A stretch of 64,000 nucleotides of DNA, taken from assembly GCA_002729525.1 (NCBI GenBank), contig PBYI01000034.1:17854-81853 (forward strand), in the 5' to 3' direction. The notes beneath the pieces were generated by a model, which saw nothing but the letters and a program-made list of their open reading frames with translations, searched no databases and was not told the DNA's origin. The DNA comes from Nocardioides sp. Its GTDB lineage: Bacteria; Actinomycetota; Actinomycetes; Propionibacteriales; Nocardioidaceae. Below are positions 48,546 to 54,016 of this stretch, piece by piece (position 1 is the stretch's first letter; each line of letters opens with the position of its first letter). The position numbers and the translations under genes are program-made.

Positions 48546-48694
48546 GGCCTCATCGTCGCACGCAGAGCACCCTCCGGGCGGGGGTGGAGGCGGCCGCGGC
48601 ACGCCGGGCGGGCTCCGCTGCCCGGCTCTGCGCGTGCACCGCCCGTACGATGGCCGTCTCCGGAACCTTCCCCTTCCGGAGCAGGAGGGTCGAC

Positions 48695-50677
48695 GTGGAC
48701 GTAGACACGCACGCCCGCCCGACCGGTCCGTCCGGACTGGCGGGCCGGGTGCTCGACGGCCGCTACCGCATCGGTCGGCGCATCGCGCGCGGCGGCATGG
48801 CCAGCGTCCACGAGGCCCACGACCTCCGGCTCGACCGCACGGTCGCCGTCAAGGTCATGCACCCCGGTCTCGGCGACGGCGCCTCCGACCACGCCTTCGC
48901 AGCCCGCTTCGTGCGCGAGGCCCGCGCCGCCGCCCGGCTCTCGCACCCCAACGTCGTCGCCGTCTACGACCAGGGCGAGGACCACGGTGACACCTACCTG
49001 GCGATGGAGTACGTCCCGGGCCGCACCCTGCGCGACGTGATCGCCGACGAGGCACCGCTGTCGCCCAGCCGCGCGCTGGCCCTGGTCGAGCCGGTGCTGT
49101 CCGCGCTCGCCGCGGCGCACGAGACCGGCCTGGTGCACCGCGACGTGAAGCCCGAGAACGTCCTCATCGCCGCCGACGGTCGGATCAAGGTCGCCGACTT
49201 CGGCCTGGCCAAGGCCGTCAGCGCCGACACCCAGCACACCGCGACCGGTGGCGTGCTCATCGGCACCGTCTCCTACCTCGCGCCCGAGCTGGTCGTCGAC
49301 GGCCGGGCCGACGCCCGCGCCGACGTGTACGCCGTGGGCGTGGTGCTCTACGAGCTGCTCACCGGCGTGAAGCCGCACACCGGCGAGTCCCCGATCCAGG
49401 TCGCCTACCGCCACGTCAACCACGACGTGCCGCCGCCGTCCGAGCGCGTCCCCGGGCTGCCGGCGTACGTCGACGCGCTGGTGGCGCGCGCGACCGCGCG
49501 CGACCTGGCGCGACGCCCCGCCGACGCCGCGGTGCTGCTGCGGCAGGTCCGCCGGGTGTCGCAGGCGCTGGCCGCGGGGCGTACCGACGACGTCGACCTC
49601 ACCGCCGACCTGGCCCTCGACCCCGGTGCGGCCACGGCCGGCGCGCTCGCCGAACCGGTCTCCGACCGCACCGCGCCGCTGCGCCGCCCCGAGCCCGGCC
49701 CCTCCCCCGACGAGCCGGCGGCCCACGCCCGACCGCTGCGCCGTCCGGCGCGCTCCGAGCGCGCACCGCGTCCCGGTCCCTCGCCCCGCGTGCGTCGCCG
49801 GCGCCGCGGACTCGTCCTCCTGCTCGTCGCCCTGCTCGTCGCCGGCGGCGTCGGTGGGGGCGCGTTCTGGTACGGCTGGGCCCGCTACGAGGCGGCCCCC
49901 AGCGTCGTGGGCATGACGCGCGCGGAGGCCGTCGAGACGCTCCAGTCCGCCGGCCTCGAGGTCGCCGTCGAGACCCCGGTCTGGGACGCCGACACCGAGC
50001 GCGGCGAGGTGCTGTCGGCCGACCCGGGCGGCGGGAGCCGGGTGCTGTCCGGCGACACCGTCACGCTCACCGTCTCCCGCGGCGCTCTCCTCGCCCCGCA
50101 GGTGCGCGGTCTCGACGAGGACGCCGCCCAGGACGCCCTGCTCGAGCGCGACCTGGTCTTCGGACGCTCGGTCGGCCGCTGGTCGGAGACCCAGCCCGAG
50201 GGCACCGTGCTCACCAGCCGCCCCAAGACCGGCACCCAGCTCGAGCCCGGCGACACCGTCAACCTCGTGGTCAGCAAGGGCCGGCGCCCGATCTCGGTCG
50301 GCGACTGGACCGGCAAGCCGCTGGCGCGCGCCCAGGCGGCGCTGGAGGACCGCGGGCTCACCGTGCAGATCTCCGGCGAGGAGTACGACGACACGGTCCC
50401 GGCCGGCCACGTGCTCGCCCAGACGCCCGCCGGCGGCACCCTCAACCGCGGCGACACCGTCACCCTGACCCTGTCGCGCGGCCCGGAGCTCGTCGAGGTG
50501 CCGTCCGTGCGCGCCAACGGCGTCACCGCGGCGCGCGAGAAGCTCGAGGCACTCGGCTTCGAGGTCGAGGTGAAGCAGAACGACTCCTACTTCAACCTCG
50601 GCATCGCCGTGCGCACTGACCCCGAGGCCGGCGACATGGCGCCCAAGGGCAGCCTGATCACCCTGTACGTCGTCTGA
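48695..50677 (+). CDS. Transmembrane Ser/Thr protein kinase with four C-terminal PASTA domains
   Basis: Hanks kinase motifs (GGMASVHEA, VAVKV, HRDVKPENVLI, DFGLA, YLAPE), one TM segment, and four ~65-aa PASTA-like repeats. The GTG at 48695 has an AGGAGG Shine-Dalgarno 6 nt upstream. Confidence 0.92.
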   Translation: MDVDTHARPTGPSGLAGRVLDGRYRIGRRIARGGMASVHEAHDLRLDRTVAVKVMHPGLGDGASDHAFAARFVREARAAARLSHPNVVAVYDQGEDHGDTYLAMEYVPGRTLRDVIADEAPLSPSRALALVEPVLSALAAAHETGLVHRDVKPENVLIAADGRIKVADFGLAKAVSADTQHTATGGVLIGTVSYLAPELVVDGRADARADVYAVGVVLYELLTGVKPHTGESPIQVAYRHVNHDVPPPSERVPGLPAYVDALVARATARDLARRPADAAVLLRQVRRVSQALAAGRTDDVDLTADLALDPGAATAGALAEPVSDRTAPLRRPEPGPSPDEPAAHARPLRRPARSERAPRPGPSPRVRRRRRGLVLLLVALLVAGGVGGGAFWYGWARYEAAPSVVGMTRAEAVETLQSAGLEVAVETPVWDADTERGEVLSADPGGGSRVLSGDTVTLTVSRGALLAPQVRGLDEDAAQDALLERDLVFGRSVGRWSETQPEGTVLTSRPKTGTQLEPGDTVNLVVSKGRRPISVGDWTGKPLARAQAALEDRGLTVQISGEEYDDTVPAGHVLAQTPAGGTLNRGDTVTLTLSRGPELVEVPSVRANGVTAAREKLEALGFEVEVKQNDSYFNLGIAVRTDPEAGDMAPKGSLITLYVV

Positions 50678-50735: not shown

Positions 50736-51644
50736 GTGCGCAACCCCCTCGGAACCCACGTCCTGGTCGGCAAGGGCCTCGTCGCCGGTGCTCTCGCCTC
50801 GGCCGTCGAGCTCGGCTGCGAGGCCTTCCAGGTGTTCGTCGGCAACCCGCGCGGCTGGGCCCTCACCGAGGGCGATCCCGCGCAGGACGCGGCCTTCCGC
50901 GAGGCGTGCGCCGAGGCCGGGCAGCGGGTGTTCGTGCACACGCCGTACCTCGTCAACCTCGGCTCGCCCACGCCCGCGACGTACGAGAAGTCGGTGGCGC
51001 TGGTCGCGCACAACCTGCGCCGCGCCGCCGAGATCGGCGCCGAGGGAGTCGTCGTGCACACCGGCTCCTACGTCGCGCCCGCCGGTGACGACGCCGACGC
51101 CGTACGCCGCCACGAGGCCGCACTGCGCCAGGTGCGCGAGGGCCTCCTCCCGCTCCTGGAGACCCTCGACGGCCCGGACGCGCCGTGGCTGCTGCTGGAG
51201 CCGACCGCCGGGCAGGGCCGGTCGCTGTGCGCCGGCGTGGACGACCTCGCCGGCTACCTCGACGCCCTCGACCGGCACCCGCGCGCCGGCGTCTGCCTGG
51301 ACACCTGCCACGTCTTCGCGGCCGGCGCACCGCTCGACGAGCCGGGCGGCACGGCCGCGACGCTCGACCGGCTCGACGAGGTCGCCGGACCCGGCCGCCT
51401 GCGGCTGGTGCACGCCAACGACTCGAAGGACCCGCGCGGCTCGATGAAGGACCGGCACGAGCGGCTCGGCGACGGGCACGTCGGCGTCGACGCGTTCGCG
51501 GAGCTGCTGGCCCACCCGAGCACCGAGGGCGTGCCGATGGTGCTGGAGACGCCGGGCTCGCGCGAGCCGGGCAACGCCGACCTGGCGCTGCTGCAGCGGC
51601 TGCGGGCCGCGCGGGCCGCCGTACCGGCGTCGTCCGGATCCTGA
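50736..51644 (+). CDS. nfo: Deoxyribonuclease IV (endonuclease IV)
   Basis: ...HTPYLVNLGSP...VVVHTGS...LLLEPTAGQG...CLDTCHVFAAG...VHANDSK...RHERLGDGHVG. The GTG is preceded by TACCGT (50724-50729) with a 6-nt spacer. Confidence 0.9.
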   Translation: MRNPLGTHVLVGKGLVAGALASAVELGCEAFQVFVGNPRGWALTEGDPAQDAAFREACAEAGQRVFVHTPYLVNLGSPTPATYEKSVALVAHNLRRAAEIGAEGVVVHTGSYVAPAGDDADAVRRHEAALRQVREGLLPLLETLDGPDAPWLLLEPTAGQGRSLCAGVDDLAGYLDALDRHPRAGVCLDTCHVFAAGAPLDEPGGTAATLDRLDEVAGPGRLRLVHANDSKDPRGSMKDRHERLGDGHVGVDAFAELLAHPSTEGVPMVLETPGSREPGNADLALLQRLRAARAAVPASSGS

Positions 51645-51687
51645 AACCCCGGCGACCCGTCGCGGACGCCGCGCTATCGTCATTGTC

Positions 51688-51747
51688 ATGACGCCGACCT
51701 ATTTCTTCGGACACCTGCCGGGAGCACCCGTGCAGGCCGGTCCGTAG
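51688..51747 (+). CDS. Candidate 19-aa leader peptide MTPTYFFGHLPGAPVQAGP (Tyr-Phe-Phe) upstream of the DAHP synthase
   Basis: The ATG is preceded by TATCGT (51675-51680) with a 7-nt spacer, the same leaderless geometry as about 9 other genes here. Three consecutive aromatic codons (TAT TTC TTC). Confidence 0.45.
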   Translation: MTPTYFFGHLPGAPVQAGP

Positions 51748-51772
51748 CAGGAACGCGCCGCACACACACCAG

Positions 51773-51796
51773 ACGCCCCGGCCAGTGCCGGGGCGT
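51773..51796 (+). terminator. Attenuator/terminator-like hairpin between the leader ORF and the DAHP synthase
   Basis: ACGCCCCGGC-CAGT-GCCGGGGCGT: a perfect 10-bp GC stem followed by TTCGTCGTGT. It ends 51 nt before the aro gene ATG. Confidence 0.5.
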
Positions 51797-51847
51797 TCGT
51801 CGTGTCCGGGGCCGGTCGGGGCACAACACCAGGAAGAGGAAACCCAC

Positions 51848-52885
51848 ATGGTCGTGGTCATGTCCCCCGACGCCACCGACGAGGACGTCGCCCAGGTCGT
51901 CGAGCGCGTCGAGGAGGTCGGCGGCGAGGCGTTCGTCAGCAAGGGCGTCGTGCGCACCATCATCGGTCTGGTCGGCGACATCGAGTCGTTCCACCACCTG
52001 AACCTCCGGGCCCTGCCGGGCGTGGCCGACGTGCACCGGATCTCCGACCCGTTCAAGCTCGTCAGCCGTCAGCACCACCCCGAGCGGTCGACCGTCTGGG
52101 TCGGCACCGAGGGTCGCCGGGTGCCGATCGGCCCCGACACCTTCACGTTCATGGCCGGTCCGTGCGCCGTGGAGTCCGCCGACCAGACCCTGGAGGCCGC
52201 GCAGATGGCCGCCTCGGCCGGCGCGACGATCCTGCGCGGCGGGGCCTACAAGCCGCGCACGTCGCCGTACGCCTTCCAGGGCCTGGGCGTGAAGGGTCTG
52301 GAGATCCTCGCCGACGTCGGCCGCTCGGTCGGCCTGCCCGTGGTCACCGAGGTCGTCGACGCCCGCGACGTCGACGTGGTCGCCGAGCACGCCGACATGC
52401 TCCAGATCGGCACCCGCAACATGGCCAACTTCGGCCTGCTCCAGGCCGCCGGTACCGCCGGCAAGCCGGTGCTCCTCAAGCGCGGCATGACCGCGACGAT
52501 CGAGGAGTGGCTGATGGCCGCGGAGTACATCGCCCAGCGCGGCAACCTCGACGTCGTGCTGTGCGAGCGCGGCATCCGCACCTTTGAGCCGGCCACCCGC
52601 AACACGCTCGACATCTCCGCGGTGCCGGTGGTGCAGACCCAGAGCCACCTGCCGGTCATCGTCGACCCGTCGCACGCGGCCGGCCGCAAGGACCTCGTGG
52701 TGCCGCTGTCGCGTGCCGCGGTGGCCATCGGGGCCGACGGGATCATCGTCGACGTGCACCCGCACCCGGAGACGGCGCTGTGCGACGGGCCGCAGGCGCT
52801 GCTCGGCTCGGAGCTGCGCGAGCTGGCGCAGGTGGCGCGCCGCTTCCCGCCGCTGGTGGGGCGCGAGCTGGCGACGACTCCCTGA
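51848..52885 (+). CDS. 3-deoxy-7-phosphoheptulonate (DAHP) synthase, type I-beta, with an N-terminal ferredoxin/ACT-like regulatory domain
   Basis: MVVVMSPDATDEDVAQVVERVEEVGGEAF... regulatory domain, then a catalytic core FMAGPCAVES...LRGGAYKPRTSPYAFQGLG...KRG...DPSH. The ATG has AGGAAGAGGA upstream. Confidence 0.9.
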   Translation: MVVVMSPDATDEDVAQVVERVEEVGGEAFVSKGVVRTIIGLVGDIESFHHLNLRALPGVADVHRISDPFKLVSRQHHPERSTVWVGTEGRRVPIGPDTFTFMAGPCAVESADQTLEAAQMAASAGATILRGGAYKPRTSPYAFQGLGVKGLEILADVGRSVGLPVVTEVVDARDVDVVAEHADMLQIGTRNMANFGLLQAAGTAGKPVLLKRGMTATIEEWLMAAEYIAQRGNLDVVLCERGIRTFEPATRNTLDISAVPVVQTQSHLPVIVDPSHAAGRKDLVVPLSRAAVAIGADGIIVDVHPHPETALCDGPQALLGSELRELAQVARRFPPLVGRELATTP

Positions 52886-52930: not shown

Positions 52931-54016
52931 GTGAGCACGACCTGCGCGCACTGCGGCCACGAGGTCGAGCTGGGCCGGTTCTGCACCAACTGCGGTGCAC
53001 CCGTCGACCCGGCCGCACTCGACACGTGGCGCACCGACACCGCCGAGCGGCCCGCAGCGCGGGACCCGCACGTACCCCCGCCTGCCCACGAGCCGCCCAG
53101 CAGCCCGCGGTTCCCGCTGTTCGCCGACGAGGTCGAGGCCTCGTCGGCGGACGCGGGGTCGGCCTCGTCCGGCCGCTCGGAGCCGGGTGCCCGGGCGGCC
53201 GGGCGGCCGGCGGACGAGCCGCCCGCGACCGGCGTGCTGCCAGGCGTGCTGCCGGGGCTCGGCGCGAGCGGTGAGACCGACGAGGCGACGAGCACCCGCC
53301 GGACCGGCCGACTGCTGCCCCTCGTCGTCGTCGGACTGGCGATCGCGCTCGTGCTGGCGATGGGGATCCTGCTGCTGGTGATCGACCAGGACACCGGCAC
53401 CGGTCCGGACACCGTCGACAGCACCAGCGAGGCGGTCGACGGCGACGCCTCGAGCAGCGAGTCCTCGACCGGGACCGACGACGACGCCTCCGACTCCAGC
53501 GACCCCGGTGGCTCGAGCGGGTCCGGTGGCTCGGGCGGCCCGAGCACGGACGTCGCCGGTCAGGCGACGGCCGAGGCGCCGGTCACCGCTCCGCCCGGCA
53601 CCGACGTCAACGGCAACACCGTCCGCTACGACGCCGCCAACCTCGTCGACGGCGACGACGACACCACCTGGCGGATGGCCGGCGACGGCGCCGGCACCGA
53701 GCTCACCTTCACCCTCGCCGGACCCGCCCGACTGGTGAAGGTCGGCCTGGTCAACGGCTACGCCAAGAAGGAGCCGGGGTACGACGGCTACACCGCCAAC
53801 CGACGCGTGCAGCGCGTGGAGTGGGAGCTCGACGACGGCACCGTCGTCGAGCAGGACCTCCGCGAGACCCGACGCATGCAGCGGGTCAAGGTGCCCGGTG
53901 CGGGCGAGACGAGCCAGGTGGTGCTGCGCATCCTCGACGTCTCGGCCCCCGGGGACGGACGCAGCGGTCGCGACTACACCGCGGTGTCCGAGGTCGCGCT
54001 GGTCGCCGCGGACTGA
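52931..54016 (+). CDS. Zinc-ribbon / single-TM protein with a C-terminal discoidin (F5/8 type C, NADase-type glycan-binding)-like domain
   Basis: CAHCGHEVELGRFCTNCG zinc ribbon, TM segment LLPLVVVGLAIALVLAMGILLLVI, and C-terminal YDAANLVDGDDDTTWRM...VSEVAL. Confidence 0.7.
   Translation: MSTTCAHCGHEVELGRFCTNCGAPVDPAALDTWRTDTAERPAARDPHVPPPAHEPPSSPRFPLFADEVEASSADAGSASSGRSEPGARAAGRPADEPPATGVLPGVLPGLGASGETDEATSTRRTGRLLPLVVVGLAIALVLAMGILLLVIDQDTGTGPDTVDSTSEAVDGDASSSESSTGTDDDASDSSDPGGSSGSGGSGGPSTDVAGQATAEAPVTAPPGTDVNGNTVRYDAANLVDGDDDTTWRMAGDGAGTELTFTLAGPARLVKVGLVNGYAKKEPGYDGYTANRRVQRVEWELDDGTVVEQDLRETRRMQRVKVPGAGETSQVVLRILDVSAPGDGRSGRDYTAVSEVALVAAD

Follow-up and report, generated by a model that had tools for sequence, protein, structure and literature searches.

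A 64,000-nucleotide stretch of DNA from Nocardioides sp. (GenBank contig PBYI01000034.1, positions 17,854 to 81,853 of the forward strand; hereafter the window) contains a gene for 3-deoxy-D-arabino-heptulosonate 7-phosphate (DAHP) synthase, the enzyme that sets carbon flow into the shikimate pathway. A short open reading frame (ORF) with adjacent Tyr and Phe codons and several potential hairpins precede this gene. Comparison with related loci and RNA folding lead us to consider this leader likely to be, in some form, a ribosome-sensing leader-peptide attenuator of the DAHP synthase gene. The window has a G+C content of 74%. All of its features discussed here are on the plus strand, and positions are those of the whole stretch.

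The DAHP synthase gene (51848-52885) encodes a protein that matches Pfam family DAHP_synth_1 (E 1e-78) and carries an N-terminal match to DAHP_snth_FXD (E 3e-19). Since both matches are present, the product is assigned, on its domain content, to the type I-beta DAHP synthases with a ferredoxin-like regulatory domain. In known relatives, this domain is responsible for allosteric inhibition by Tyr or Phe, and its detection here is in line with the N-terminal allosteric domain that had been attributed to the enzyme in the initial annotation of this DNA. The region on the 5' side of the gene encodes a Ser/Thr kinase with PASTA domains (48584-50677), followed by a gene of the AP-endonuclease-2 family (Pfam).

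The features found between the AP-endonuclease gene and the start of the DAHP synthase gene are collected in Table 1. The initial annotation had described a TATCGT box seven nucleotides before an ATG, a 19-codon ORF with the codons TAT TTC TTC, a perfect 10-bp hairpin, and a T-containing tail followed by a Shine-Dalgarno sequence and the ATG of the enzyme. Each of these is present in the sequence as described.

Table 1. Features of the DAHP synthase leader in the window, with predicted energies and z-scores of the hairpins.
Feature	Position	Strand	Description	Energy (kcal/mol)	z-score
Upstream motif	51632-51645	+	GTCCGGATCCTGAA, consensus GTCCRSAT..TGRA; overlaps the stop codon of the AP-endonuclease gene		
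-10 box	51675-51680	+	TATCGT, TAnnnT actinobacterial type; 7 nt, then ATG 51688		
Leader ORF	51688-51747	+	19 codons + TAG (51745-51747), MTPTYFFGHLPGAPVQAGP; read from sequence		
Sensor codons	Tyr 51700-51702, Phe 51703-51705, Phe 51706-51708	+	TAT TTC TTC		
Hairpin P1	5' arm 51704-51722, loop 51723-51726, 3' arm 51727-51752	+	Inside ORF; loop AGCA	-24.4	-2.7
Predicted antiterminator, 5' strand	51718-51725	+	CCGGGAGC with GCCCCGG (51775-51781), enclosing P2; 7 pairs, one bulge		
Hairpin P2	51730-51763	+	P1 3' arm (GUGCAGGCCGGUCC) with spacer box CGCGCCGCAC; UAG in loop	-17.8	-2.4
Terminator-like hairpin T	51772-51805	+	Stem 51772-51782/51787-51797, loop CAGU, weak U-tail TTCGTCGTGT	-23.7	-5.2
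Post-terminator box and small hairpin P3	51801-51826	+	(C)GTGTCCGGGGCC; inverted repeats I1, I2, I5, I12		
Shine-Dalgarno and DAHP synthase start	51832-51850	+	GGAAGAGGAAA (51832-51842); ATG 51848-51850		

Conservation of the leader module

The DAHP synthase protein was scanned against one genome per species, which yielded 80 Nocardioides/Nocardioidaceae loci (81-90% protein identity) and, together with the window, a set of 81 loci. The listing of homologous proteins consists of Nocardioides proteins only, with at least 85% identity, and the comparison covers the Nocardioidaceae. The leader module is located upstream of the DAHP synthase gene in 46 of the 81 loci, namely the window and 45 relatives, and these 46 leaders underlie the counts given below. 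A covariance model built on hairpins P1 and T matches exactly these 46, with scores of 57-97 bits, and gives no other plus-strand match in 607 kb, the rest of the window included. A cmscan search of 51400-52100 (E up to 10) matched none of the Rfam leader families; its only hits were partial ones of a terminator hairpin to the sRNA family sX6 (22 bits, compared to a gathering score of 40).

A TAnnnT box is found 6-7 nt upstream of the ATG or GTG of the leader ORF in all 46 leaders. Because this distance is fixed, transcription is predicted to start at or next to A51688, resulting in a leaderless mRNA, as the initial annotation had suggested. The same box lies 6-7 nt before the ATG of the DAHP synthase gene itself in 18 of the 35 loci that have no module; thus, it appears that the same promoter drives either a leaderless mRNA for the enzyme or a leaderless leader.

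A second element, with the consensus GTCCRSAT..TGRA, was detected by a regular-expression scan in 44 of the 81 loci. In 38 cases, 54-59 nt separate its start from the first codon of the transcript, and the spacing is alike whether the transcript opens with the leader ORF or directly with the DAHP synthase gene. The position of this motif, at about -56 to -43, suggests a candidate transcription-factor or promoter-upstream element, which, if it is regulatory, would represent a further layer of control over the gene. The motif position is also seen in L003, L006, L008, L010, L015, L020, L024, L028, L033 and other loci.

Public sequencing runs yielded no suitable RNA-seq set for this region, only sparse metatranscriptome contigs. 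Transcript sequences corresponding to it are found in one marine metatranscriptome, where each of four runs gave one contig of ~186 nt covering 51690-51872. One end of the contig is only 2-3 nt from the predicted start and carries three additional unaligned letters, while the other end is 25 nt inside the gene; with the organism covered by ~3 fragments per 20 kb, these contigs neither fix the start nor test termination. Soil and freshwater runs that match related species contain reads reaching upstream of the promoter, and such reads probably derive from DNA or from read-through transcription.

The ORF stays in frame and is 18-23 codons long in 45 of the 46 leaders. The exception is the metagenome-assembled L032 (2829-3003), in which a one-base difference removes the leader stop codon and the frame runs through the terminator hairpin; either an assembly error or decay of the leader could account for this. 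The stop codon is always located at the 3' base of P1, which corresponds to the loop of P2. Across clades, conservation of the peptide is limited to Tyr-x-Phe, mostly with Thr or Ser before it. The Tyr and the last Phe are invariant, while 23 leaders have Phe and 8 have Leu at the middle sensor codon, which specifies Trp, Arg, Ser, Val or Ala in the rest. The mini-ORF and aromatic codons of the initial annotation are thus conserved among the 46 leaders, but the motif is Tyr-x-Phe rather than Tyr-Phe-Phe, with the middle Phe present in about half. Members of a second clade contain extra upstream aromatic codons, for Phe or Trp (FWTYRF, WTYLF, YCPIYWF). The part of the peptide ahead of P1 is 42% aromatic and the part beyond it 2%, compared to 3.8% in the adjacent enzymes; an enrichment of this kind in codons for end-product amino acids is expected of leader-peptide attenuators.

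The choice of codons in the sensor block is the reverse of that in the genes it precedes. Tyr is encoded by TAT in 37 leaders (90%) and TAC in 4, and the last Phe by TTT in 27 (66%) and TTC in 14 (n=41), whereas in the DAHP synthase genes of these genomes TAT encodes 1 of 171 Tyr and TTT 2 of 352 Phe residues (about 0.6%). We consider it rather unlikely, although conceivable, that this UAU/UUU bias is functional in its own right. The sensor could be tuned if the single tRNA-Tyr(GUA) and tRNA-Phe(GAA) read these codons slowly, through G:U wobble. Alternatively, the U-rich block may also serve as an anti-Shine-Dalgarno element; if so, one stalled ribosome would relieve both termination and translational masking, making the leader a dual-output leaderless attenuator.

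On a neighbor-joining tree of the DAHP synthases, presence of the leader is distributed in large blocks with at least nine changes of state. Remnants of the module can be recognized in several loci. A T-like hairpin directly follows the promoter in L077 (2890-2960), the post-T hairpin and Shine-Dalgarno sequence are retained in L022 (2950-3000), and L069 has a truncated leaderless ORF. Taken with the tree, these remnants point to repeated loss of the leader by deletion. The loci that have no leader lie within L018-L080 (e.g. L024, L026 and L070).

Some further observations concern the neighboring genes. The 3' neighbor of the DAHP synthase gene (52931-54016) has a product containing an NADase_transloc (F5/8 type C-like) domain. 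An upstream ORF, whose domain content was not scanned, appears to stop directly before the DAHP synthase promoter in L027, L066, L068, L070 and L071. The linkage between the kinase and DAHP synthase genes may merit a look.

Alternative hairpins in the leader RNA

The leader RNA of the window folds with a predicted energy of -75.5 kcal/mol (z -3.2). RNAalifold applied to a plain MAFFT alignment gave only the invariant cores of P1 and T, and an alignment based on the covariance model was used instead. For the structure as a whole, the covariation score and the number of cells changed on both sides were each reached by 0/500 shuffles and exceeded all slid controls, with the caveat that these statistics derive from related sequences and from an alignment fitted to the model.

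Hairpin P1 has a mean energy of -20 kcal/mol over the leaders and coincides with the remainder of the peptide (G-H-L-P-G-A-P-V-Q-A). In the model-fitted alignment, pairing in its core helix reaches 90.6%, and both partners have changed at four of the pairs. L014 and L059 carry compensatory substitutions that also change the peptide: CCUGC/GCAGG is replaced by CUCGC/GCGAG in the former, and CGGG/CCCG by CAGG/CCUG in the latter. A third exchange, from GGAC/GUCC to GGCU/AGCC, is found in the second clade. We propose from the folding models that P1 serves as an anti-antiterminator, holding CCGGG in its stem.

The terminator-like hairpin T is rich in G and C. Its core in the window, ACGCCCCGGC-CAGT-GCCGGGGCGT (51773-51796), consists of 10 Watson-Crick pairs, or 11 with a flanking G.U pair. 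A fold as good was obtained in 0/200 shuffles, and the pattern CGCCCCGG-N3-12-CCGGGGCG occurs once in the 64-kb window, compared to an expected 0.02 occurrences. Over the leaders, T has a mean energy of -20.3 kcal/mol and a mean z of -4.2 (below -2 in 98%), and is 88.9% paired. The outer seven pairs are invariant or nearly so, while at one inner position 19 leaders have U-A and 18 have G-C. In L045, L049, L056 and L062, T is followed by 5-6 U, as in a normal intrinsic terminator. A simple terminator scan of the window did not call T, since just four of the eight bases after the stem are T. The hairpin is situated between the only promoter-like element and the DAHP synthase gene, so that expression of the gene would require read-through.

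The 3' arm of P1 has an alternative partner in a conserved spacer box, GACGCGCC-GCAC, with which it forms hairpin P2. P1 and P2 share this strand and are similar in energy (means of -20 vs -16 kcal/mol). P2 has a mean z of -2.4, below -2 in 56% of the leaders, and forms in the stalled-ribosome folds (described below) of nearly all of them. A covariation table anchored on the minimum-energy folds is striking for P2 but can be taken as suggestive only.

Formation of P2 leaves the segment CCGGGAGC, i.e. the inner 5' arm and loop of P1, available to pair with GCCCCGG in the 5' arm of T. In the window, 51718-51785 folds as this putative antiterminator helix together with P2, with an energy of -26.0 kcal/mol. 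We modeled a stalled ribosome positioned at the Tyr, middle or Phe codon, with its edge at the end of the A-site codon plus 9 nt (the usual footprint), and RNA transcribed up to the loop of T, before the 3' arm of T emerges. A leader was counted if at least 5 nt of the T 5' arm paired with CCGGG. Under these conditions, the combination of antiterminator and P2 is the minimum-energy fold in 45-46 of 46 leaders, compared to 14 of 46 in the absence of the ribosome. The energy of the antiterminator duplex ranges from -9 to -15.6 kcal/mol over all 46 leaders. P1, the antiterminator and T share a triple of related boxes (CCGGG / CCCGG / CCGGGG), and a similar triple was noted for actinobacterial trp attenuators (PMC1262725).

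A different partner for the left arm of T had been proposed in the initial annotation, namely the segment GTCCGGGGCCGG (51804-51815), which is complementary to the T 5' arm (inverted repeat I5). However, it is downstream of T and would be transcribed only after the point of termination, and therefore is unable to prevent termination; it was ruled out in favor of the upstream segment CCGGGAGC as the plausible antiterminator. The post-terminator box can pair either with the spacer box, extending the stem of T, or with the T 5' arm. The extended stem recurs in many leaders, with a z of only -1.3 in the window, and was not retained as a candidate.

Between T and the Shine-Dalgarno sequence, a short hairpin-like box, GGCC-CCGACGRCGT-GGCC, is present in seven loci: L015 (2964-2977), L022 (2967-2980), L030, L050, L055, L061 and L073. 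Among these, L022 has lost the leader. The window carries a different small hairpin at this place (51801-51826). The purine-rich Shine-Dalgarno block is conserved in the alignment and is unpaired in the predicted global folds.

Proposed mechanism and alternative explanations

The sequence features, their conservation among the relatives and the alternative pairings in silico are the observations on which our interpretation is built. We infer from them that the leader ORF is translated, that ribosomes stall at its aromatic codons, that transcription can terminate at T, and that the gene thereby responds to amino acid supply. The interpretation as an attenuator is favored because T is located between the promoter-like element and the gene, because the sensor codons are at the 5' foot of P1 and the stop codon is inside the switch, and because the regulated gene is the entry to the pathway making the amino acids that these codons specify. 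The initial annotation had arrived at the same interpretation from the window; the conserved ORF, -10 box, Tyr/Phe codons and hairpin of the 46 leaders support it. The leader would sense how far tRNA-Phe and tRNA-Tyr are charged, and in some relatives tRNA-Trp as well.

In the scheme we propose, transcription would begin at A51688, the first base of the leader ATG, or beside it, and the leader ORF would be translated off a leaderless mRNA. With an ample supply of aromatic aminoacyl-tRNAs, the ribosome would pass Tyr5-Phe6-Phe7 and leave at the UAG, allowing P1 to form. With P1 formed, the 5' arm of T would be free, T would form, and most transcripts would stop short of the gene. Under a shortage of Phe or Tyr, the ribosome would stall at codons 5-7 and cover the outer part of the P1 5' arm. 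The freed 3' arm of P1 would then pair with the spacer box to form P2, bringing CCGGGAGC beside GCCCCGG of the T 5' arm. The resulting 7-bp helix would act as the antiterminator, delaying T so that RNA polymerase could read into the DAHP synthase gene. Since the ferredoxin-like domain would add allostery, both expression and activity of the enzyme could respond to the end products. While a ribosome-sensing attenuator of some form is probable, we give this specific termination/antitermination scheme roughly an even chance of being correct.

A number of results weigh against this reading. The modeled antiterminator hangs on 3 nt of the assumed footprint: with an edge at +12 nt, T forms in 46/46 leaders and the antiterminator is gone. 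The antiterminator helix is short, and at equilibrium T always wins (P2 and T together, -45 kcal/mol). Because T prevails once its 3' arm is present, the antiterminator would have to act kinetically. Its gain over shuffled arms is only about 2-4 kcal/mol, and a clade-swap test on the 46 leaders revealed no co-evolution of its two strands. A strict 4-mer control and a swap test likewise lend the covariation of P2 only modest support; in the latter, the mean energy is -13.4 kcal/mol for self pairing and -11.7 kcal/mol for swapped pairing. The U-tract after T is weak: among the 8 bases following the stem, 4 are T in the window, and only 19 of 46 leaders have at least 5. Termination by mycobacterial RNA polymerase requires a U-tract or the assistance of NusG. 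The sole RNA fragment found, from the marine metatranscriptome, reads through T to 51872. The middle sensor codon is frequently non-aromatic (Leu, Arg, Ser, Val or Ala). Finally, the module is missing in 35 of the 81 loci (about 43%).

As an alternative, the leader could act on translation, in the manner of the mycobacterial Cys leaders. The Tyr-Phe-Phe codons (UAUUUCUUC) would then mask the purine-rich Shine-Dalgarno sequence until a stalled ribosome frees it, and T would be only structural or stabilizing, or else termination control and translational control would form two layers. Leaderless Cys leader ORFs of mycobacteria do act in this way (bioRxiv 10.1101/834739), and the unusual U-ending codons would strengthen pairing with the Shine-Dalgarno sequence. 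The Tyr-x-Phe codons are its best partner in ~10 of 46 leaders, with energies of -10 to -11.7 kcal/mol (e.g. L002, L007, L009, L013, L019 and L048). However, this pairing is not general: the duplex averages just -7.4 kcal/mol, with a median rank of 0.30 among windows of the same leader (46 leaders), and leaders with Trp, Arg or Ala in the middle pair poorly (-2.7 to -6 kcal/mol). The Shine-Dalgarno sequence is also unpaired in the predicted global folds, and the conserved hairpin T would be left unexplained. We regard translational attenuation as an unlikely explanation for the leader.

The weakness of the U-tract, which is suboptimal in more than half of the leaders, could also indicate that T is mainly a pause hairpin and that termination depends on Rho. 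The P1/P2 switch would in this case regulate the loading of Rho at the spacer (CGCGCCGCACACACACCAGACGCCCC), which is rich in C and poor in G, and a stalled ribosome would block Rho termination by hiding the spacer box in P2. The spacer is indeed C/A-rich, conserved and located directly after the stop codon, its 5' half is sequestered by P2, and explanations of this kind were proposed for actinobacterial leaders that have no clear terminator (PMC1262725). Yet its length of only about 25-30 nt is small for a Rho site, and several relatives have the run of 5-6 U after T described above (L045, L049, L056 and L062). Rho- or pause-dependent attenuation is also improbable in our judgment.

It could be argued that the region has no regulatory role, T being a leaky constitutive terminator or an RNA-stabilizing hairpin and the ORF incidental to the structure. 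T is indeed present in every predicted equilibrium fold, and the 35 relatives that do not have the module show no obvious compensation. An incidental ORF, however, would not be expected to keep its frame or the 6-7 nt spacing between box and start (46/46), nor to keep invariant Tyr and Phe residues with synonymous variation and a reversed codon preference. This makes an absence of regulation very unlikely.

A functional micropeptide, or a TnaC-type arrest peptide (T-Y-x-F-G-H-L-P-G-A-P) that senses a ligand rather than tRNA charging, is the least credible of the explanations considered, since, although 11 residues are conserved in the main clade and Thr/Ser-Tyr-x-Phe-Gly/Ala is kept across clades, the conserved residues beyond Tyr-x-Phe coincide with the P1 stem, compensation in P1 changes them (HLPGAPVQA to HSPGIPVRA in L014, and TCQGHLGSG in L059), and residues 2-4 and the C-terminus vary freely.

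Relation to known attenuators and significance

Control by a tRNA-charging attenuator, the reading we prefer, has a precedent in Corynebacterium glutamicum, which had already been invoked for the window. The passages on the aroR-aroF leader in PMC4046766 (Mentz 2013) and PMC11802643 (citing Neshat 2014) describe a leader peptide with Phe-Tyr-Phe and induction by Phe limitation, and the precedent is real. We consider this attenuator the closest analogue in function. Both leaders contain three adjacent Phe/Tyr-rich codons (Phe-Tyr-Phe there, Tyr-Phe-Phe here) upstream of an actinobacterial DAHP synthase gene, and control by ribosome stalling has been proposed or shown in C. glutamicum. They differ in that C. 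glutamicum belongs to the Mycobacteriales, whereas Nocardioides belongs to the Propionibacteriales, and in that the Nocardioides leader appears to be leaderless and uses rare U-ending codons. The enzymes presumably differ as well, since we take the aroF product of C. glutamicum to be a type I-alpha DAHP synthase that has no ferredoxin-like domain.

The predicted architecture resembles that of the enterobacterial attenuators trpL, pheL-pheA and pheM-pheST. Both follow the logic of three alternative hairpins (1:2, antiterminator and terminator), which is a prediction for Nocardioides. In both, the first hairpin has the sensor codons at its 5' foot, the stop codon is within the switch, and a similar triple of short boxes is present. 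The Nocardioides leader differs from them in that its ORF has no Shine-Dalgarno sequence (leaderless), it has 2-3 sensor codons compared to 7 Phe codons in pheL, its putative antiterminator is a composite of P2 and a 7-bp helix across an internal loop, and its U-tract is weak.

Translation from such a start has been described for other actinobacterial leaders. In the leaderless polycysteine short ORFs of mycobacteria, stalling unmasks a downstream ribosome-binding site (Canestrari et al., bioRxiv 10.1101/834739). Those leaders share with the present one a leaderless sensory short ORF that is the first cistron of an actinobacterial biosynthetic mRNA, and a signal that consists of stalling at cognate codons, as is proposed here. 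However, they have no terminator, whereas the Nocardioides leader has the conserved T and a Shine-Dalgarno sequence that looks unpaired. The ilvBNC leader peptide of C. glutamicum is translated without a ribosome-binding site, according to the mention of Morbach 2000 in PMC4046766. It too is an actinobacterial leader that has no Shine-Dalgarno sequence and controls a terminator, but it senses Val, Ile and Leu and belongs to another operon.

For the common aromatic pathway, a comparative survey of Actinobacteria from 2005 identified no RNA element that was conserved (PMC1262725). A text search of the literature that combined Nocardioides, DAHP synthase and attenuation found no report. To our knowledge, RNA-level control of the DAHP synthase step in Actinobacteria has been documented only for C. 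glutamicum. The attenuator logic itself is ordinary; what is new is the family in which it is found, the enzyme subfamily, the leaderless start, the composite antiterminator and the rare U-ending sensor codons, the functional features among these being predictions.

In practical terms, the leader is worth adding to genome annotation and to Rfam, and could be a target for engineering the production of aromatic compounds. The reversal of codon choice could serve to test whether wobble-decoded codons sharpen the sensitivity of an attenuator. The relatives that have no leader (about 40%) would constitute a natural experiment, as they appear to express the enzyme from a leaderless mRNA under the same promoter. 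If our interpretation is correct, the Nocardioides leader would provide a compact example of leader-peptide control that operates without a Shine-Dalgarno sequence, and would represent a second, apparently independent actinobacterial case of attenuation at the DAHP synthase step, involving a different subfamily of the enzyme.

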